This document shows, one piece after another, positions 1 through 13,352 of a stretch of DNA of 13,352 bases. Position 1 is the first letter of the stretch; each line of letters opens with the position of its first letter. This DNA is from a virus (lineage: Duplodnaviria > Heunggongvirae > Uroviricota > Caudoviricetes): IMG/VR virus record IMGVR_UViG_2690316028_000011. The stretch is one strand, 5' to 3'. The notes beneath the pieces were generated by a model, which was not told the DNA's origin, ran no database searches, and worked only from the letters and a program-made list of their open reading frames with translations. The translations under genes and the position numbers were made by a program.

Positions 1-69
1 AAGATATGATGTGATGGCATTTTATAAAGTTATTTTTTGAAGTGTAAGATTATACGATATTTTTAGCTA

Positions 70-100
70 CGCCAGAATAATTGCTGGCGTTTTTCTTTTT
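70..100 (+). terminator. Intrinsic terminator upstream of the holin gene (possibly the tR'-like late terminator, or the terminator of an upstream gene)
   Basis: Perfect 6-bp stem CGCCAG (70-75) / CTGGCG (84-89) with an 8-nt loop, followed by TTTTTCTTTTT (90-100). Not followed by a T-run on the opposite strand. Confidence 0.55.
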
Positions 101-190
101 GAATAGATGTTCGGGCCTTACGCTAATGTAACTTCTTTCCTTCTTCGAACCAAACCGTGTACACCATCCGTTATCTGCGGAGGTGAGGCT

Positions 191-406
191 ATGAAATCCA
201 TGGATAAGTTAACAACGGGCATCGCCTACAGCACCTCTGCAGGCAGTGCTGGCTACTGGTTTTTACAGTTGCTCGATAAAGTCACGCCCTCACAGTGGGC
301 GGCAATAGGTGTATTGGGTAGTCTGGTATTTGGCATGCTGACGTATCTGACAAACCTTTATTTCAAGATTAAAGAAGACAGGCGTAAGGTTGCGAGAAGA
401 GAGTAA
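191..406 (+). CDS. essQ: Phage-21-type class II holin (pinholin) with dual-start motif M-K-S-M
   Basis: 71-aa product [25 protein letters not shown]...[17 protein letters not shown] matches the S21/EssQ pinholin pattern with two predicted TM segments. Strong SD GGAGGTGAGG lies just upstream of the ATG at 191. The six-frame ORF (107..406) extends upstream, but the RBS supports 191. Confidence 0.85.
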
Positions 407-410
407 TCCA

Positions 411-962
411 ATGACTCAAGACTATGAACTGGTTGTGAAAGGAGTTCGCAATTTTGAGAATAAAGTGGCGGTAACTGTAGCCTTACGGGACAAAAAACAC
501 TTTGACGGTGAAATTTTTGACCTGGACATCTCGCTGGACCGTGTTGAAGGTGCCGCGCTGGAGTTTTATGAGGCAGCAGCCAGAAGGAGCATCAGACAGG
601 TCTTCCTGGATGTTGCTGCCGGGTTATGTGAAGGGGATGAGCAGTCGTCGGAAAAGCGCCCCATAATTTTAGAGGCGCAGAATGTGTGGATAACCTACAA
701 AGGAAAGCTACCGGGAAGAATTACTGGTTCTCTGAAGACGCCACCGACGGCATTGCGGTCAGAAAAAGATGATATTGAATCGCCCATTGAAAAACTGGAG
801 GGCAGCGTCGCTGATCTGAATAAAAAATTGTCGGTGCTGATTCCTTCTGAAGATGAAAAAAAACGCCGCGATGAGCAGTTTGCGGCGTTTTACGATTATT
901 GCATTGAAGTTACTCGCAGGAATTTTGTGAAGATTTTTGAGGAGGGTAAATCTCTTCAGTAA
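411..962 (+). CDS. Uncharacterised acidic protein (183 aa) inserted between holin and endolysin
   Basis: ORF 390..962 opens with TTG; the first ATG is at 411, preceded by AGAGAG and immediately after the holin stop. Composition looks like normal coding sequence. No family recognised. Confidence 0.5.
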   Translation: MTQDYELVVKGVRNFENKVAVTVALRDKKHFDGEIFDLDISLDRVEGAALEFYEAAARRSIRQVFLDVAAGLCEGDEQSSEKRPIILEAQNVWITYKGKLPGRITGSLKTPPTALRSEKDDIESPIEKLEGSVADLNKKLSVLIPSEDEKKRRDEQFAAFYDYCIEVTRRNFVKIFEEGKSLQ

Positions 963-1170
963 GCTTATTGGCGGACGCTGCAATTAATTCAGGAAGGTCC
1001 GCAAGGTCATCTGTCAGTGGATATGATGAAAAATCGGCGGCAGTTCTGTTAAGAAGCGCTTTAACTAATTCCTTTTCCTTCTCCGGCAACAAGTTGATTA
1101 GAGCTACGACTGCTTGCCTGAGTGCGATTAAATCAGCAAAAGTTTGTTTTGGTAGATTTGTGTAATCCAT
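910..1170 (-). CDS. Uncharacterised small protein (86 aa), convergent with the preceding ORF
   Basis: ATG at 1170 on the minus strand is preceded by GAGG about 7 nt upstream. Its 3' end overlaps the 411..962 ORF by 53 bp. This position corresponds to where ydfR sits in K-12 Qin, but I cannot confirm identity. Confidence 0.45.
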   Translation of the reverse strand: MDYTNLPKQTFADLIALRQAVVALINLLPEKEKELVKALLNRTAADFSSYPLTDDLADLPELIAASANKLTEEIYPPQKSSQNSCE

Positions 1171-1283
1171 AGTCGCCTCTGTGTTTATCAGATTGACATC
1201 CTCCTCCCGCCAGTGCCCATCACTGGTGAGGTAAGATTTAACATATCCGGGGATTTGAAGCCGATAAATCCTGATAAATATCC

Positions 1284-2311
<1,028 letters not shown>

Positions 2312-2494
2312 ATTAATATTAAATCGGATTATTTTTAGCGCTGAATGTGAAATTTAAATAAAAAGGACTCTTCCATGAGTCAAAATCCTTGAAATCTTAA
2401 GGGTAAGATAAAAGGTCATTAGACAGAATGACACGTTTTATTAATAAATAAAGCTATTGTTTCATTCGTGTGTTTTTCTTTACAAAAGTAATCC

Positions 2495-2523
2495 TTGCTA
2501 TGGTTGGTTAATCATGCGTTAAT
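2495..2523 (+). promoter_or_regulatory. Candidate sigma70 promoter for cspI with long AT-rich 5' UTR
   Basis: TTGCTA (2495-2500), 17-bp spacer, GTTAAT (2518-2523; compare cspA -10 CTTAAT). Would give a 5' UTR of roughly 145 nt, typical of the cspA family. Sequence-pattern inference only. Confidence 0.3.
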
Positions 2524-2674
2524 GGTGTTCTGGTTTGTTACAAAATTATCTGAAGCAGTCATTGTTATAATTTTATTATTTGTACCTCTTGAGATTTCCT
2601 TGTTGGTTTTTCTCTCTGATATTTTTTTTCGGACCATTCTGCCCAAGGGCTAACTTCTTCAAAAGGTAATAATG

Positions 2675-2887
2675 ATGTCTAACAAAATGACTGGTTTAGT
2701 GAAATGGTTTAACCCTGAAAAAGGTTTTGGTTTCATCACGCCGAAAGATGGTAGCAAAGATGTGTTTGTCCATTTCTCAGCTATTCAGAGCAACGATTTC
2801 AAAACGTTAACTGAGAATCAGGAAGTCGAATTTGGTATTGAGAACGGACCTAAAGGCCCCGCGGCTGTTCATGTTGTGGCACTTTGA
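2675..2887 (+). CDS. cspI: Cold-shock protein, CspA family
   Basis: 70-aa product [38 protein letters not shown]... carries the RNP1 (KGFGFI) and RNP2 (VFVHF) motifs. SD AAAGG with cspA-like spacing. The six-frame ORF begins one codon earlier at 2672. Confidence 0.9.
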
Positions 2888-3086
2888 GGTAGAAAATATT
2901 ACAAACCATATTCACTTTAGATGCCCGTGTTGCCATGGTTCTCAGTATAGAACATCATCTTTTGATGTTTCTGACAGGAATCCTTTCGGGGCAAAATGTA
3001 TCTTTTGTAAATCAATGATGATTACATTTGATAATATTTCACAATACTTAAATGTTAGCCGTCTGTCGTTAGATTTAAGAAAGTGA
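2871..3086 (+). CDS. Possible small zinc-ribbon protein (71 aa) immediately downstream of and overlapping the cspI 3' end
   Basis: Product contains C-P-C-C ... (about 20 aa) ... C-I-F-C, a zinc-ribbon-like arrangement. The ORF stop at 3086 is followed 7 nt later by a strong intrinsic terminator. The RBS is weak and the ATG at 2871 is the only ATG start, so this stays low confidence. Confidence 0.25.
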
Positions 3087-3389: not shown

Positions 3390-3561
3390 TTTGATTCTAA
3401 TGCATTGATAATAAATGATAATCATCTTTATCTGTTTGTGTGAAATTTAGACCGTCGTATGTTGATTATTGCGATGTTTCATCTTATCTTTTATACGTTT
3501 GCTCCATATAATTGACACTACTGTGTACCAGGAAAGTCATAACAGACTAAAAGAGGAAATG

Positions 3562-3735
3562 ATGAACATTGAAGAGTTAAAAACAAAAACAGAAGCAGAT
3601 ATTTCTGAATATATAACAAAAAAAATCATTGAGCTTAAGAAAAAGACCGGGAAAGAAGTTACCAGTATCCAGTTTACTGCACGGGAAAAAATGACTGGTC
3701 TTGAAAGCTATGATATCAAGATTGATTTAATCTAG
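3562..3735 (+). CDS. gnsB: GnsA/GnsB family small protein (57 aa)
   Basis: MNIEELKTKTEADISEYITKKIIELKKKTGKEVTSIQFTAREKMTGLESYDIKIDLI, preceded by SD AAGAGGAAA. Matches the GnsA/GnsB family of prophage-encoded proteins. Confidence 0.85.
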   Translation: MNIEELKTKTEADISEYITKKIIELKKKTGKEVTSIQFTAREKMTGLESYDIKIDLI

Positions 3736-4789: not shown

Positions 4790-5284
4790 ATGGATCGAGA
4801 GTTAAAAAATCTGACGCTGAATATCAGTCAACTGGCGGCATTGTCAGGTGTACATCGCCAGACTGCTGCGGCAAGGCTGCAAAATCTACCCGTTGCAGGG
4901 GGGCATGAAAGCAACCTCAAGCTTTATCGGGTGGTTGATATTGTGTCGGCATTTCTGGCATTACCACCGCCGGTTGCAGAAGGCGAAATGGACGCGCATG
5001 AGCGCAAAGCCTGGTATCAGTCTGAACGTGAGCGTCTTAAGTTCGAACAGGAAACGGCACAACTCATTCCGGCCAGTGATGTCAGACGGGAGTTTGCCAT
5101 CTGGGCAAAAGCGGTCGTGCAGGTGCTGGAGACATTACCGGATATTCTTGAACGTGACTGCGGTCTGCAGCCTGCCGCTGTGAGCCGTGTTCAGTCCATT
5201 ATTGATGATCTGCGCGATCAGATAGCCCTGCGGGTGACTGAAGCAGGTGCGGATGATGAGGAGGAATTACAGCAGGAGGAGTAA
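4790..5284 (+). CDS. Terminase small subunit (Nu1-like DNA packaging protein)
   Basis: 164-aa product with an N-terminal HTH-like segment (LNISQLAALSGVHRQTAAARL) and acidic C-terminus. Sits directly downstream of cos; its stop overlaps the start of the large terminase gene (TAATG at 5282-5286). SD GGAG upstream. Confidence 0.7.
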   Translation: MDRELKNLTLNISQLAALSGVHRQTAAARLQNLPVAGGHESNLKLYRVVDIVSAFLALPPPVAEGEMDAHERKAWYQSERERLKFEQETAQLIPASDVRREFAIWAKAVVQVLETLPDILERDCGLQPAAVSRVQSIIDDLRDQIALRVTEAGADDEEELQQEE

Positions 5285-5919
5285 TGCTGAATCAGGAAAC
5301 CGCAAAGGCAGCACGAACCGATTCAGGTTATATCCTTCGCGCACCGAGACGAATGCGGGTTGCTGATGCCGTTGCTCAGTATATGCGGGTGCCCATGGGG
5401 GCAGGGAACTCAGTCCCGTGGGATCCGCTGGTGGCACCGTATGTTATTGAGCCTATGAACTGCCTGGCCTCGCGTGAATACGACGCAGTGATATTTGTTG
5501 GCCCGGCACGAACCGGCAAGACTATCGGCCTGATTGACGGCTGGGTGATTTACAACGTGATTTGCGATCCTGCGGATATGCTGATCATTCAGATGACAGA
5601 GGAAAAAGCCCGCGAACACTCCAAAAAACGACTCGCCAGAACGTTTCGCGTCAGCCCGGAAGTGGTCAGTCGCCTGAGTCCGAACAAAAATGACAACAAC
5701 GTTTATGACAGAACATTCCTTGCTGGCAACTACCTGAAAATCGGCTGGCCGTCAGTCAATATCATGTCCTCATCAGATTATAAATGCGTCGCGCTGACGG
5801 ATTATGACCGTTTTCCGGAAGATATTGATGGCGAGGGGGATGCCTTCTCTCTTGCCTCAAAACGTACCACCACATTTATGTCCAGCGGTATGACGCTGGT
5901 GGAGAGTTCCCCCGCTGGC
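5284..5919 (+). pseudogene. Terminase large subunit (gpA-like), N-terminal fragment truncated by deletion
   Basis: Walker-A-like VIFVGPARTGKT and gpA-family ATPase-domain pattern. Homology ends about codon 205-210; the ORF then reads out of frame into gpI-derived sequence and stops at 5988. A full gpA is about 640 aa. Confidence 0.75.
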
Positions 5920-6433
5920 CATGCAGATCCCGGCGTTTCGTCAGAAACTGAGCGACGGCTGGTACCAGGTACGCATTGCCGGGCGTGATGCAGGTGAAAC
6001 CGAATTGTCTGCCCGTCTTAATGAGCCGCTGGCAAATGGTGCCGTGATCCACATCGTGCCGCGTCTGGCGGGAGCTAAAAGTGGCGGTGTGTTTCAGGTG
6101 GTGCTGGGGGCGGCGCTGATTGCGGTGGCATGGTGGAACCCTGTGGGCTGGCTGGGTGCCGCGGCTGTATCGGGCATGTATGCGGCAGGGGCCAGTATGA
6201 TCCTGGGCGGAGTGGCGCAGATGCTGGCACCGAAAGCCAGGACGCCCACGGCAGCAAGTACAGATAACGGCAAACAGAACACCTATTTCTCCTCACTGGA
6301 TAACATGGTTGCCCAGGGCAATGTTCTGCCTGTTCTGTACGGGGAAATGCGCGTGGGGTCACGCGTGGTTTCTCAGGAGATCAGCACGGCAGACGAAGGG
6401 GACGGTGGTCAGGTTGTGGTGATTGGTCGCTGA
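5912..6433 (+). pseudogene. Lambda gpI-like tail assembly protein, C-terminal fragment (fusion partner of the terminase remnant)
   Basis: From LAMQIPAFRQKLSDGWYQVRIAGRD... to ...VVSQEISTADEGDGGQVVVIGR aligns with the C-terminal roughly 175 residues of lambda gpI. The N-terminal ~45 codons are missing and a stop lies in frame just upstream at 5891. Confidence 0.8.
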
Positions 6434-6452
6434 TGCAAAATGTTTTATGTGA

Positions 6453-6473
6453 AACCGCCTGCGGGCGGTTTTG
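6453..6473 (+). terminator. Stem-loop with T-tract between the gpI remnant and the J-like gene (terminator-like; function uncertain)
   Basis: AAACCGCC (6453-6460) / GGCGGTTT with loop TGCG, followed by TTTTG. The equivalent hairpin exists in lambda between I and J. Confidence 0.35.
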
Positions 6474-6493
6474 TCGTTTATGGAGCGTGAGGA

Positions 6494-9469
6494 ATGGGTA
6501 AAGGCAGCAGTAAGGGGCATACCCCGCGCGAAGCGAAGGACAACCTGAAATCCACGCAGCTGCTGAGTGTGATTGATGCCATCAGCGAAGGGCCGGTTGA
6601 AGGTCCGGTGGATGGATTAAAAAGCGTGCTGCTGAACAGTACGCCGGTGCTGGACAGTGAGGGGAATACCAATATATCCGGCGTCACGGTGGTGTTCCGG
6701 GCAGGTGAGCAGGAGCAGACTCCGCCGGAGGGGTTTGAATCCTCCGGCTCCGAGACGGTGCTGGGTACGGAAGTGAAATATGACACGCCGATCACCCGCA
6801 CCATTACGTCGGCAAACATCGACCGTCTGCGCTTTACCTTCGGTGTACAGGCACTGGTGGAAACCACCTCAAAGGGTGACAGGAATCCGTCGGAAGTCCG
6901 CCTGCTGGTTCAGATACAGCGTAATGGTGGCTGGGTGACGGAAAAAGACATCACCATTAAGGGCAAAACCACCTCGCAGTATCTGGCCTCGGTGGTGGTG
7001 GATAACCTGCCACCGCGCCCGTTTAATATCCGGATGCGCAGAATGACGCCGGACAGCACCACAGACCAGCTGCAGAACAAAACGCTCTGGTCGTCATACA
7101 CCGAAATCATCGATGTGAAACAGAGCTACCCGAACACGGCACTGGTCGGCGTGCAGGTGGATTCGGAGCAGTTCGGCAGCCAGCAGGTGAGCCGTAATTA
7201 TCATCTTCGCGGGCGTATTCTGCAGGTGCCGTCGAATTATAACCCGCAGACGCGGCAATACAGCGGTATCTGGGACGGAACGTTTAAACCGGCATACAGC
7301 AACAACATGGCCTGGTGTCTGTGGGATATGCTGACCCATCCACGCTACGGCATGGGGAAACGTCTTGGTGCGGCGGATGTGGACAAATGGGCGCTGTATG
7401 TCATCGGCCAGTACTGCGATCAGTCAGTACCGGACGGCTTTGGCGGCACGGAGCCGCGCATCACCTGTAATGCATACCTGACCACACAGCGCAAGGCGTG
7501 GGATGTGCTCAGTGATTTCTGCTCGGCGATGCGCTGTATGCCGGTATGGAACGGGCAGACGCTGACGTTCGTGCAGGACCGACCGTCGGATAAGGTGTGG
7601 ACCTATAACCGCAGTAATGTGGTGATGCCGGATGATGGCGCGCCGTTCCGCTACAGTTTCAGCGCCCTGAAAGACCGCCATAATGCCGTTGAGGTGAACT
7701 GGATTGACCCGGATAACGGCTGGGAGACGGCGACAGAGCTTGTTGAAGATACGCAGGCCATTGCCCGTTACGGTCGTAACGTCACGAAGATGGATGCCTT
7801 TGGCTGTACCAGCCGGGGGCAGGCGCACCGCGCCGGGCTGTGGCTGATTAAAACGGAACTGCTGGAAACGCAGACCGTGGACTTCAGCGTGGGTGCGGAA
7901 GGGCTTCGCCATGTACCGGGGGATGTCATTGAAATCTGCGATGATGACTATGCGGGTATCAGCACCGGCGGGCGCGTGCTGGCGGTGAACAGCCAGACCC
8001 GGACGCTGACGCTCGACCGTGAAATCACGCTGCCATCCTCCGGTACCACGCTGATAAGCCTGGTTGACGGTCAGGGTAATCCGGTCAGCGTGGAGGTCCA
8101 GTCCGTCACCGACGGCGTGAAGGTGAAAGTGAGCCGTGTTCCTGACGGCGTTGCAGAATACAGCGTGTGGGGGCTGAAGCTGCCGACGCTGCGCCAGCGC
8201 CTGTTCCGCTGCGTGAGTATCCGTGAGAACGATGACGGCACGTATGCCATCACCGCCGTGCAGCATGTACCTTCTGCCCGTAAGGTGAATGGTAAGGCGC
8301 TTTCAGCGGATATAACACTGACGCCGAAAGATATTGGTACGCTTAACTCAACAACAATGTCATTCAGCGGTGGTGCTGGTTGGTTCAAATTAGCAACGGT
8401 AACCATGCCACAGGCGAGTTCTGTTGTTTCAATTACGTTGATTGGTGGCGCGGGATTTAACGTGGGGTCACCTCAACAGGCAGGTATATCTGAACTTGTT
8501 TTGCGTGCAGGTAATGGTAATCCGAAGGGGATTACTGGTGCTTTATGGCAGCGCACATCGACAGGGTTTACAAATTTTGCCTGGGTCAATACATCTGGTG
8601 ATACTTACGATATTTACGTTGCAATCGGAAATTATGCGACTGGTGTAAATATTCAATGGGATTATACCAGTAATGCCAGCGTGACGATTCATACGTCACC
8701 AGCATATTCTGCTAATAAGCCGGAAGGGTTAACGGACGGTACAGTTTATTCACTCTATACGCCATCAGAGCAGTTTTATCCGCCTGGCGCACCAATCCCG
8801 TGGCCATCAGATACCGTTCCGTCTGGCTATGCCCTGATGCAGGGGCAGACTTTTGACAAATCTGCATACCCGAAACTTGCAGCCGCTTATCCGTCAGCCG
8901 TGATCCCTGATATGCGTGGCTGGACGATTAAGGGCAAACCCGCCAGTGGTCGTGCCGTATTGTCTCAGGAACAGGACGGCATTAAATCGCACACCCACAG
9001 CGCCAGCGCATCCAGTACGGATTTGGGGACGAAAAACACATCGTCGTTTGATTACGGAACCAAATCCACGAATAACACCGGGGCGCATACCCATAGTATT
9101 AGCGGGACTGCAAATAGTGCCGGTGCGCACCAACACAAGAGTTCCGGTGCATTTGGTGGCACGAACACGAGCATTTTCCCTAATGGTTATACCGCGATTT
9201 TAAATCTAAGCGCGGGGATTATGAGCACAACAAGCGGTAGTGGCCAGACTCGTAATGCAGGGAAGACATCATCAGATGGTGCTCATACCCACTCGCTGTC
9301 CGGCACTGCTGCAAGCGCAGGCGCACATGCACATACTGTCGGTATTGGTGCTCATACGCACTCCGTTGCGATTGGTTCACATGGACACACCATCACCGTT
9401 AACGCTGCTGGTAACGCGGAAAACACCGTCAAAAACATCGCATTTAACTATATTGTGAGGCTTGCATAA
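6494..9469 (+). CDS. Chimeric tail tip / tail fibre protein: lambda J-like N-terminal ~593 aa fused to a side-tail-fibre-like C-terminal domain with His-rich repeats
   Basis: N-terminus [24 protein letters not shown]... through ...[10 protein letters not shown] is near-identical to lambda host-specificity protein J. After nt ~8272 the sequence diverges, GC content drops, and the C-terminus carries repeated G-A-H-T-H-S / AHAHT / SHGHT motifs like those of Stf/T4 gp37-type fibres. Strong SD GGAG/GAGG upstream. Confidence 0.9.
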
Positions 9470-10044
9470 TGGCATTCAGAATGAGTGAACAACCACAGAC
9501 CATAAAAATTTATAATCTGCTGGCCGGAACTAATGAATTTATTGGTGAAGGTGACGCATATATTCCGCCTCATACAGGTCTGCCAGCAAACAGTACCGAT
9601 ATTGCACCGCCAGATATTCCGGCAGGCTTCGTGGCTGTTTTCAACAGTGATGAGGCATCGTGGCATCTCGTTGAAGATCATCGGGGAAAAACCGTCTATG
9701 ACGTGGCTTCCGGCGACGCGTTATTTATTTCTGAACTCGGTCCGTTACCGGAAAATGTTACCTGGTTATCGCCGGAAGGGGAGTTTCAGAAGTGGAACGG
9801 CACAGCCTGGGTGAAGGATACGGAAGCAGAAAAACTGTTCCGGATCCGGGAGGCGGAAGAAACAAAAAACAACCTGATGCAGGTAGCCAGTGAGCATATT
9901 GCGCCGCTTCAGGATGCTGCAGATCTGGAAATTGCAACGGAGGAAGAAATCTCGTTGCTGGAAGCATGGAAAAAGTATCGGGTATTGCTGAACCGTGTTG
10001 ATACGTCAACTGCACAGGATATTGAATGGCCAGCACTGCCGTAG
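9469..10044 (+). CDS. tfaQ: Tail fibre assembly protein (Tfa)
   Basis: 191-aa product [39 protein letters not shown]... matches the TfaQ/TfaR family. Start overlaps the stop of the upstream fibre gene (TAATG), indicating translational coupling. Confidence 0.9.
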
Positions 10045-10141: not shown

Positions 10142-10732
10142 TTATATGTCAGGTGTCTGAAGTTTTGCTTTGGCTCTTAAAATGGTTTGCCGCGAGGTTT
10201 TGAATTCCCGGGCAATGGCACTTATACTTACACCTGACTTAATTCGTTCGAATACCACCTGTTTCTGTTCTTCATTTAACACAGGTGGTCGACCAAAACG
10301 TTTCCCTGCGCCGCGGGCTCTTACTATCCCGGAATGAGTGCGTTCAAGTAAAAGGTCTCGTTCAAATTCAGCGACTGCTGAAATTACTTGCATCATCATT
10401 TTTCCTGTTGGACTGGTCAGGTCAATGCCACCCAATGCTAAGCAATGCACTCTGATACCTGTTTCGGTCAGTTGTTCCACTGTTTTCCTGATATCCATTG
10501 CATTACAACCAAGGCGATCCAGTTTTGTCACAATCAATTGATCACCACATTTCAGGCGAGCAAGCAACCGGTTAAAACCAGGACGCTCACTGGTTGCTGC
10601 TGAGCCGCTAATGTGTTCTTCGATTATTTGCTGAGGTTTGATTTTAAAACCTGCACTTTCGATTTCCCGGCGTTGATTTTCGGTGGTCTGATCCAGCGTT
10701 GATATCCGACAGTAAGCAAAAATTCGAGACAT
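10142..10732 (-). CDS. pinQ: Serine recombinase, DNA-invertase (Pin) family
   Basis: 196-aa product [20 protein letters not shown]... with the catalytic-serine motif (R-I-S-T-x-D-Q) and a C-terminal HTH ([18 protein letters not shown]). Matches PinQ/PinR. Convergent with tfa. Confidence 0.9.
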
Positions 10733-12068: not shown

Positions 12069-13352
12069 ATGGATTTCCAGTTATATTCGCTCGGCGCAGC
12101 GTTAGTGTTTCATGAAATATTTTTTCCTGAATCATCAACGGCAATGGCGTTAATTCTGGCAATGGGAACCTATGGTGCAGGTTATGTGGCGCGTATTGTC
12201 GGAGCATTTATTTTCGGCAAAATGGGCGACAGAATAGGGCGTAAAAAAGTGCTCTTTATTACCATCACCATGATGGGGATCTGTACCACCTTAATTGGAG
12301 TGTTACCGACCTATGCACAGATTGGTGTTTTTGCCCCCATCTTGCTGGTGACGCTGCGTATTATTCAGGGATTGGGTGCAGGTGCGGAAATTTCCGGTGC
12401 CGGTACGATGCTGGCGGAATATGCGCCAAAAGGTAAGCGCGGAATTATCTCCTCATTTGTGGCTATGGGAACTAACTGCGGAACCTTAAGCGCAACGGCA
12501 ATCTGGGCCTTTATGTTCTTCATTCTCAGTAAAGAGGAACTGCTGGCGTGGGGATGGCGTATACCGTTCCTGGCGAGCGTTGTCGTGATGGTCTTTGCTA
12601 TCTGGTTACGTATGAATCTGAAAGAAAGCCCGGTCTTTGAGAAGGTTAACGACAGCAACCAACCGACAGCAAAACCTGCACCTGCTGGTAGCATGTTCCA
12701 GAGCAAATCCTTCTGGCTGGCAACAGGGCTGCGTTTTGGTCAGGCGGGTAACTCCGGTTTAATTCAGACTTTCCTTGCAGGCTATTTAGTACAGACGTTA
12801 TTGTTTAACAAAGCAATTCCAACAGATGCATTGATGATCAGTTCGATTCTCGGCTTTATGACCATTCCGTTCCTTGGTTGGTTATCCGATAAAATTGGTC
12901 GCCGGATCCCGTATATTATTATGAATACCTCTGCGATTGTGCTGGCGTGGCCAATGCTTTCTATCATCGTAGATAAAAGCTATGCCCCGAGCACCATTAT
13001 GGTTGCACTGATTGTGATTCATAACTGTGCGGTGCTGGGATTATTTGCTCTGGAAAACATTACCATGGCAGAAATGTTCGGCTGTAAAAACCGCTTTACC
13101 CGGATGGCTATTTCAAAAGAAATTGGTGGTCTTATCGCTTCCGGTTTTGGTCCTATCCTGGCGGGTATTTTCTGCACCATGACGGAATCCTGGTATCCGA
13201 TCGCCATTATGATCATGGCATATTCAGTAATTGGTTTAATCTCTGCGCTGAAAATGCCAGAGGTGAAAGACCGTGATTTAAGTGCGCTGGAAGACGCTGC
13301 GGAAGATCAACCGCGTGTTGTAAGAGCTGCGCAACCTTCCAGAAGTCTGTAA
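12069..13352 (+). CDS. ydfJ: MFS transporter (metabolite:H+ symporter family), N-terminally truncated at the prophage junction; likely non-functional
   Basis: 427-aa ORF with MFS signatures (GKMGDRIGRKK, multiple TM helices, WGWRIPF, LSDKIGRR). Compared with ProP-like homologues the first ~35-40 residues (first half of TM1) are absent. No convincing SD before the ATG. Stop codon coincides with the window end. Confidence 0.85.
   Translation: MDFQLYSLGAALVFHEIFFPESSTAMALILAMGTYGAGYVARIVGAFIFGKMGDRIGRKKVLFITITMMGICTTLIGVLPTYAQIGVFAPILLVTLRIIQGLGAGAEISGAGTMLAEYAPKGKRGIISSFVAMGTNCGTLSATAIWAFMFFILSKEELLAWGWRIPFLASVVVMVFAIWLRMNLKESPVFEKVNDSNQPTAKPAPAGSMFQSKSFWLATGLRFGQAGNSGLIQTFLAGYLVQTLLFNKAIPTDALMISSILGFMTIPFLGWLSDKIGRRIPYIIMNTSAIVLAWPMLSIIVDKSYAPSTIMVALIVIHNCAVLGLFALENITMAEMFGCKNRFTRMAISKEIGGLIASGFGPILAGIFCTMTESWYPIAIMIMAYSVIGLISALKMPEVKDRDLSALEDAAEDQPRVVRAAQPSRSL

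Follow-up and report, generated by a model that had tools for sequence, protein, structure and literature searches.

Organization of the lysis cassette

The stretch of Caudoviricetes DNA analysed here, 13,352 nt of IMG/VR record IMGVR_UViG_2690316028_000011 (hereafter the window), starts with the lysis cassette of a Qin-like lambdoid Escherichia coli prophage, and 2.4 kb of it is 99.9% identical to strain H8 and many other genomes. Between the holin gene (S) and the endolysin gene (R) lie two convergent genes, a long form of the late gene ydfR on the plus strand and a gene for an 86-aa protein on the minus strand (the reverse gene), whose 3' ends are antisense to one another over 53 nt. The reading favoured here, with moderate confidence, is that the reverse gene is an independently transcribed, moron-type gene interlocked with long-form ydfR and plausibly switched off by convergent late transcription. 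A sequence-only reading of the window had drawn the same two open reading frames (ORFs), the same overlap and the same flanking pinholin and endolysin genes, and all of its coordinates hold on the sequence. The cassette contains the following features.

191..406, plus strand: S21-type class II holin (pinholin), 71 aa (PF04971, 3.3e-34), with an MKSM dual-start motif
411..962, plus strand: long-form YdfR/DUF1327 gene, 183 aa, ATG at 411, stop at 962
910..962, both strands: antisense overlap of the two 3' ends, 53 nt
910..1170, minus strand: reverse-strand gene, 86 aa, ATG at 1170, TAA stop at 912..910
1176..1180, minus strand: Shine-Dalgarno sequence AGAGG of the 86-aa gene, read from the sequence, 5 nt before the ATG
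1284..1817, plus strand: signal-arrest-release (SAR)-type phage lysozyme R (rrrQ-like), 177 aa, ATG at 1284 (PF00959, 2.6e-24; annotation)
1814..2311, plus strand: Rz-like spanin (DUF2514; PF10721, 1.9e-38; phrog_312), compare K-12 rzpQ/rzoQ
about 2007-2261, plus strand: Rz1-like lipoprotein frame inside the Rz-like spanin gene, from the ORF list

The pinholin is labelled essQ in a genome 99.9% identical to the window. Both ORFs possess the Shine-Dalgarno sequences first ascribed to them, AGAGG for the minus-strand ORF and a weaker GAGAG for the plus-strand ORF, the latter 7 nt 5' of an ATG that itself lies 4 nt past the holin stop.

A resident late gene with an exchangeable tail

The plus-strand ORF matches Pfam family DUF1327 (PF07041) with 143.4 bits against a cut-off of 25 (E 2.6e-42; aa 1-112 on positions 1-92 of the 93-position model) and phrog_2091 from end to end (6.8e-111). 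By these matches it is a long form of the YdfR/DUF1327 late gene, a catalogued family none of whose members is known to have a demonstrated role in a phage life cycle. The gene can be regarded as resident because a DUF1327 gene commonly sits between S and R: 101 phage records have this arrangement, including H-19B, BP-4795, Stx2 phage 86 and many Stx1a and Stx2c phages, and the order class II holin, DUF1327 gene, lysozyme is also found in K-12 Qin, mEp460, an Stx1a phage, PhiR63_1 and Chlobot. DNA matches to ydfR occur at 8615 places in 4349 of 5426 complete E. coli genomes (80%). The expectation that S and R normally adjoin each other, on which both ORFs had been taken for inserted cargo, therefore fails for these phages (H-19B, BP-4795, Stx1a and Stx2c phages, mEp460 and others), and the 183-aa ORF is not cargo; the placement of ydfR at the equivalent position of K-12 Qin was correct. 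The ydfR stop overlaps the rrrQ start in K-12 Qin. Translation of R is coupled to ydfR in K-12.

The 183-aa protein divides into three segments.

aa 1-75: N-domain, three strands and a helix
aa 76-120: conserved linker
aa 123-182: helical tail

An AlphaFold2 model places three strands and a helix at aa 5-73 and long helices at aa 123-143 and 147-182, with low confidence at 74-120. The window protein shares with K-12 YdfR (K-12 Qin ydfR, b1555) the slot after a class II holin and before a lysozyme, and a match over aa 1-112 far above the family threshold, but it differs in length (183 aa versus 103-116) and in carrying an Stx-phage-type linker and a helical tail that are absent from K-12; the two proteins are 84% identical over aa 1-74 and unrelated beyond. 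YdfR of K-12 binds the N-terminal catalytic half of RNase E, as seen by two-hybrid analysis and co-purification, with residues 1-72 sufficient for binding and RNA co-purifying, and its overproduction hardly alters the transcriptome (PMC13232886). The window protein may bind RNase E likewise, its link to the K-12 experiment being the 84% identity over aa 1-74. Literature searches with DUF1327, ydfR and CFT073 locus tags returned the RNase E interaction paper and incidental mentions only.

The YdfR tail looks translated, because the indels of 7 and 28 codons that distinguish the tail variants are in frame and preserve a common stop, because stand-alone 73-aa tail ORFs of the Salmonella type (two compared) show a ratio of nonsynonymous to synonymous substitution rates (dN/dS) of 0.34, and because the plus ORF is intact, at 183 or 176 aa, in 68 of 71 scorable IMG/VR loci. 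The 183-aa form is present in the viable phages PhiR63_1 and 2H10. The short K-12 protein (103 aa; L101 5555-5866, minus strand) matches the beginning of a 243-aa DUF1327 protein (L099 443-1174, minus strand) at 83% identity across 99 residues, and K-12 ydfR accordingly looks like a deletion remnant of the 243-aa form, fused onto the rrrQ start; the partner of the 243-aa form is a homologue of the 86-aa gene. These comparisons show YdfR to be modular, with a core that binds RNase E (binding shown for K-12), a linker, and exchangeable C-terminal parts.

The reverse-strand gene and its product

The 86-aa ORF, entered in RefSeq as a hypothetical protein, matches phrog_2572, a catalogued but orphan family, over its full length (4.4e-53). 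Its family is small, comprising 18 clusters in an indexed search and 12 matches in an exhaustive search of 1.84 billion representatives, and reaches Salmonella enterica and unassigned contigs at 40-55% protein identity. The homologues in L095 and L099 are 93 aa long. Across the diverged homologues the 86-aa frame has a dN/dS of 0.24-0.34, the lowest of the six frames, and contains no stops; the antisense shadow frame gives 0.37-0.55, with stops and with ends that are not conserved. The Shine-Dalgarno sequence and start are conserved across the family, and the ORF is full length in 75 of 80 IMG/VR loci. Judged by this pattern of constraint, the 86-aa ORF is a real, conserved gene, though a losable one, and the coding signal and conservation asked of both ORFs by the sequence-only reading are found, each having a full-length phrog match. 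A plus-strand shadow ORF at 968..1165 (65 aa) was considered as a gene and rejected on its higher dN/dS, stops in homologues and unconserved ends.

The 86-aa protein is acidic (pI 4.6), and AlphaFold2 models it as three helices at residues 8-26, 30-48 and 56-74, with a predicted local distance difference test score (pLDDT) of 70. The maximum 19-residue Kyte-Doolittle hydropathy of the 183-aa protein is 0.81; that of the 86-aa protein reaches 1.62, in a stretch that holds the conserved residues D13, R18 and Q19 and is modelled within a soluble three-helix bundle. Neither protein has a clear membrane segment, and both are acidic. Eight successive TPR_10-type repeats of one CHAT-TPR protein can each be aligned with residues 12-65 of the 86-aa protein, at 31-39% identity, and the predicted helix-turn-helix geometry fits the TPR_10 repeats (PF13374) of such proteins. 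The 86-aa protein has at most one and a half repeat units, however, and itself gives no match above threshold to any Pfam TPR model. The likeness is thus a lead rather than membership, one that would fit a small protein-binding adaptor, and the modelled product is probably a soluble acidic three-helix protein of this kind.

Searches for a function return little. Pfam, NCBIfam, PADLOC, PDB sequences and three fold libraries contain no match that explains the 86-aa protein or the YdfR tail; PADLOC-DB 2.0 gives no defence family at E ≤0.1 for either protein or the homologues tested; a profile of the 86-aa family finds nothing among PDB sequences; and the best hits of the 86-aa model are at E 3.4 in PDB (Foldseek) and at E 0.94 in BFVD. 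A "DUF1823" label in PhiR12 phage records proves to be sub-threshold (E 0.13; 12.9 bits against a cut-off of 25). A type I toxin-antitoxin pair was rejected for want of a small hydrophobic membrane toxin, given the hydropathy values above. A type II pair was rejected as well, the genes being convergent rather than co-directional and the tail and the 86-aa protein lacking a toxin or antitoxin domain in Pfam, NCBIfam and PADLOC. The suggestion that the two ORFs serve toxin-antitoxin or anti-defence functions is therefore not borne out: PADLOC, Pfam and NCBIfam yield no such match, and both proteins are conserved, acidic and predicted to be soluble.

A variable module at a cargo site

Alignment of the S-R interval of six phages (alignment A1) separates the resident from the variable DNA. 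Phages with a short ydfR (104-116 aa), for example an Stx1a phage and mEp460, are without ~757..1232; Chlobot has other cargo in its place; and PhiR12_1 has a quite different DUF1327 N-domain, followed from ~757 by the window sequence again, in frame. The breakpoints against Stx1_EH1995 and PhiR12_1 therefore define the variable unit, which consists of the whole 86-aa gene, the 62-nt leader of that gene and the 3'-terminal ~70 codons of the plus ORF.

about 757..1232: variable module, ~480 bp, spanning the codons of the YdfR tail and the 86-aa gene with its 5' leader

Of the insert previously proposed between holin and endolysin, this unit stands and the remainder is resident. The module is found at ≥80% coverage in 294 of the 5426 complete E. 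coli genomes, versus 4349 with ydfR, and its GC fraction is 0.41-0.43 versus 0.49-0.52 in the flanks. CFT073 and E. coli B (ATCC 11303) are among the strains with the module.

Other genomes contain YdfR forms of 263 and 297 aa with different C-terminal domains, and elsewhere the S-R interval holds a 223-aa protein beginning with the tail segment or other reverse-strand ORFs of 92, 106 and 233 aa. At least four different reverse-strand ORFs (86, 92, 106 and 233 aa) follow a conserved promoter-like block in different phages and prophages (the window, L005, L087, L089 and L006). The S-R interval is a mosaic hotspot with a cargo site just 5' of R. Two candidate relationships among these cargo proteins were discarded: the Chlobot 92-aa and STEC1587 106-aa proteins have no detectable homology to the 86-aa family (hhalign probability <1%), and the 86-aa protein, on comparison, showed no homology to the C-terminal domains found in its stead in YdfR forms of 243-297 aa.

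Promoter-like and terminator-like signals

Three elements flank the reverse gene on its own strand.

1240..1281, minus strand: promoter-like block "P_left", ATATTTATCAGGATTTATCGG ... TATGTT, with -35-like TTTATC at 1268-1263, a 17-nt spacer and -10-like TATGTT at 1245-1240
1210..1226, minus strand: palindrome CCAGTG-N5-CACTGG in the presumed 5' leader, with a loop change in PhiR12_1
852..891, minus strand: hairpin of 10 bp with a 12-nt loop, arms at 882-891 and 860-869, then U8 (859-852); -17 kcal/mol, z -2.2

The upstream block is kept in every family context, including Salmonella loci without an adjacent R, in the form ATATTTATCAGGnTTTATC(G/T)G, 17 nt, TAT(GT/TG)T; the spacer has diverged in sequence and is constant in its 17-nt length. 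Identity to the diverged loci is 67-89% in the block and 58-75% in the hairpin region, as compared with 44-48% in the leader and 24-39% in the spacer between stop and hairpin. The palindrome, retained in PhiR12_1, is not conserved in Salmonella-type loci. In other phages, whose reverse cargo genes are unrelated, the sequence parts from that of the window directly after GGATATGT. Read together with the genes that follow it, the block is a predicted leftward promoter serving the cargo site. TTGACA at 1192-1197 (plus strand) was examined as a promoter and rejected, no usable -10 hexamer accompanying it.

The block abuts the R start codon in E. coli. As a separate observation, R has no recognisable Shine-Dalgarno sequence in 1233-1283 (plus strand), and the sequence in front of its start, GATAAATCCTGATAAATATCC, is the conserved block in reverse complement.

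At the other end, the hairpin begins 21 nt past the stop of the reverse gene, inside the YdfR tail codons (KKRRDEQFAAFY). It is GC-rich, is kept in 8 of 8 contexts examined, and in one type shows a compensatory change (CGCCGC/GCGGCG to CGCCACC/GGTGGCG) at a place where the encoded peptide differs. In L088, which has a 297-aa YdfR and no reverse gene, the left arm is absent and five codons, KRRDE, are missing (alignment A4). The hairpin with U8 is likely, from its computed structure, to be an intrinsic terminator of the 86-aa gene.

These signals could also be taken to mean that the RNA itself matters, the leftward transcript acting mainly as an antisense regulator of ydfR/R expression or lysis timing and the 86-codon ORF being secondary. 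Convergent units with complementary 3' ends, and a hairpin set between an A-run and a U-run, would suit such a role, as would the retention of the block in phages without the reverse ORF, where it would read antisense into ydfR (in some Stx1a phages nothing follows it). Protein-level purifying selection across genera and the conserved start and Shine-Dalgarno sequence argue otherwise; neither product is a small hydrophobic toxin (maximum hydropathy 1.62, with conserved D, R and Q within), and Rfam contains no known RNA matching 1..2400. A mainly regulatory RNA is consequently judged very improbable.

Co-inheritance of the reverse gene and the YdfR tail

The reverse gene adjoins an ORF of DUF1327 plus tail in all 80 IMG/VR loci, and every context found pairs it with a convergent ORF whose C-terminal end is a homologous helical tail. 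The 3' ends overlap by 53 nt where the locus is of the E. coli type and by 59 nt in all of the family's other contexts. In the partners of diverged homologues, homology to the window tail covers the final 60-70 residues (alignment A4). The rest of the partner varies.

E. coli: DUF1327 plus tail, 169, 176, 183 or 211 aa
Salmonella-type phages L091, L095 and L102: stand-alone 73-aa ORF with its start overlapping the Rz stop, between Rz and the terminase genes
L099 and L100: 243-aa DUF1327 proteins
L098: 144/153 aa without DUF1327, downstream of Q-region cargo
L103: 116 aa as called, without DUF1327

The pair thus occupies three late-operon positions in three diverged types and is always convergent. 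The earlier question of whether the two genes always travel together can be answered in the affirmative for all 80 IMG/VR loci and the diverged E. coli and Salmonella contexts, with the 3' overlap a conserved feature, and these comparisons suggest that tail and reverse gene belong to a single mosaic unit, which has moved from one late-operon position to another in phages of E. coli and Salmonella.

So strict an association might reflect a protein pair, in which the helical YdfR tail (or the 73-aa tail protein) binds the three-helix 86-aa protein, and the late protein neutralises or recruits the one expressed in the lysogen, or is regulated by it, perhaps with some connection to RNase E. Co-occurrence at three genomic positions and in three diverged types is what such a pair would give; the tail is found as an independent 73-aa ORF, translationally coupled to Rz and with a dN/dS of 0.34; both proteins are predicted to be helical; the 86-aa protein resembles one TPR_10-type repeat unit, a protein-binding motif; and the YdfR N-domain binds RNase E in K-12. 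The co-occurrence of tail and small gene is, however, expected anyway, because the 3' end of the reverse gene and the hairpin lie inside the tail codons, and for the same reason co-inheritance alone cannot discriminate between a protein pair and the favoured reading of an independently transcribed gene. The tail also exists without the reverse gene, in the 263-297 aa forms, both proteins are acidic, and the TPR resemblance falls below every Pfam threshold. On balance a protein pair seems rather unlikely, though it is to be taken seriously.

Comparison with known systems

The module can be set against morons in the concept of Juhala/Hendrix 2000, as summarised in PMC2629481. Like the morons bor and lom of lambda, it is present or absent between collinear phages (~757..1232 in alignment A1), has promoter-like and terminator-like signals, the latter consisting of the computed hairpin and U8, deviates in GC and is oppositely oriented. 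Unlike them, it has a predicted product that is cytoplasmic, acidic and helical rather than a lipoprotein or outer-membrane protein, and its likely terminator lies inside, and its 3' end overlaps, an ever-present forward coding sequence. The proposal of a moron-type cargo read against late transcription can therefore be retained for the 86-aa gene, on its presence or absence, low GC and predicted terminator, and dropped for the 183-aa ORF.

The bor gene of lambda is reverse-oriented and follows Rz. The position of the module in Salmonella phages, from Rz to the terminase genes, is that of bor on the lambda map, and bor is the closest analogue of the module by position and orientation. Convergent antisense pairs include lambda oop/cII and the type I toxin-antitoxin systems par Fst/RNAII of pAD1, TxpA/RatA and BsrG/SR4. 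The window genes resemble these in that their 3' ends are complementary over tens of nucleotides and include a hairpin that could serve in either direction, but differ in that both partners encode conserved soluble proteins and no short hydrophobic toxin is present.

Proposed expression of the reverse gene against the late operon

The observed anatomy, coding constraint, co-inheritance and conservation of block and hairpin are the ground on which promoter activity, expression timing, antisense interference and any physiological role are proposed here. The reverse gene would have its own leftward transcript, made most probably in the lysogen or the cryptic prophage and ending at the hairpin within the ydfR tail codons. 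Late transcription antiterminated by Q would then cross the cassette head-on and shut the small gene down, and the complementary 3' ends, 53 nt by ORF overlap or about 110 nt up to the hairpin, could add antisense interference. The small product would be a soluble acidic three-helix protein, probably a protein-binding adaptor. A literature search found no description of the module.

Several observations weigh against this reading. At the level of the signals, a sigma-70 consensus scan of 1171..1283 calls no promoter, and the block agrees with the sigma-70 consensus at only about 7 of 12 positions by manual reading; it is also present in phages without the reverse gene and could instead serve translation or expression of R. 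Only loci of the E. coli type have a strong U-tract 3' of the hairpin; the Salmonella type has a partial one, and the L098/L099/L103 type has none. No transcripts of the module were found in the literature. At the level of the proteins, the AlphaFold2 model of the 183-aa protein has a mean pLDDT of only 52, which is low confidence, and close E. coli variants give a dN/dS of about 0.6-0.7 in the 86-aa frame with no third-position excess. In 7 of the 80 IMG/VR loci (L069-L075), all of them among those with a 176-aa YdfR (a 7-codon in-frame tail deletion), the reverse gene starts with ACG rather than ATG, and the gene is therefore dispensable. Finally, RefSeq and the Prokaryotic Genome Annotation Pipeline (PGAP) tag the plus ORF (411-746; L001 12411-12746) as a pseudogene with a "missing C-terminus". 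Some annotators lengthen the reverse ORF of the ACG-start loci upstream to 127 aa.

The pseudogene label, relaxed dN/dS among close variants and lost start codons could also be taken as signs of decay, with the plus ORF a truncated pseudogene of a 296-aa YdfR, its tail read through by accident, and the cassette now without function; this prophage has lost head and tail genes, and K-12 ydfR is itself a truncation remnant. The plus-ORF frame is nevertheless open through all 183 codons, and the label is probably an artefact of comparison with longer relatives (296 aa). The 183-aa form has its own full-length family, phrog_2091, and occurs in the viable phages PhiR63_1 and 2H10; the tail varies in length by 7 and 28 codons without losing its frame or its stop; the tail ORF is intact in 68 of 71 loci; and Salmonella phages initiate a 73-aa tail ORF separately. 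Decay of the cassette is hardly to be credited on this record, and the plus ORF should not be annotated as a pseudogene.

An extension of the independently transcribed gene would combine it with the protein pair into a two-state switch, in which a TPR-like adaptor made in the lysogen acts on a host target, possibly in the RNase E pathway, and is silenced by late transcription and neutralised by the YdfR tail. This scheme is improbable; if true, it would make host RNA metabolism or lysis timing depend on the lysogenic or lytic state.

The locus matters beyond this prophage, since ydfR is among the most widespread E. coli prophage genes (80% of complete genomes) and is carried by Stx-converting phages as well. 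Its modularity, and the cargo hotspot upstream of R, provide a concrete handle for experiments on accessory genes of lysis cassettes, and the 86-aa gene with the tail is a compact unit testable in the viable phages PhiR63_1, 2H10 and the PhiR12 series. Annotation gains regardless of mechanism: the pseudogene label on the plus ORF should be dropped, and the reverse ORF is a real conserved gene.

Prophage surroundings

Upstream of the cassette, a terminator-like hairpin and T-run lie at window positions 69-90 (plus strand), ~100 nt 5' of the holin start, and could represent a late-operon terminator read through by Q-modified polymerase. Downstream, Rfam RF01766 (cspA thermoregulator) matches over its full length with 109.8 bits at 2517-2933 (plus strand), covering the leader and gene of the cold-shock protein CspI (ORF 2672-2887), and a GnsA/GnsB-family gene follows cspI at 3469-3735 (plus strand; PF08178, 7.9e-33), as in K-12 Qin. 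The region 4790-10044 is heavily deleted, with the head and most tail genes missing: a DUF1441 protein and a 234-aa terminase gpA fragment (ATPase domain only) run into a fragment of tail protein I, followed by a 991-aa J-like/tail-fibre fusion and a tail-fibre assembly gene. Next to the tail-fibre genes, at 10142-10732 (minus strand), is a gene for a serine invertase of the Pin/Hin type, which suggests an invertible fibre segment. A major facilitator superfamily (MFS) transporter gene at 12069-13352 (plus strand) probably marks host DNA at the prophage edge.

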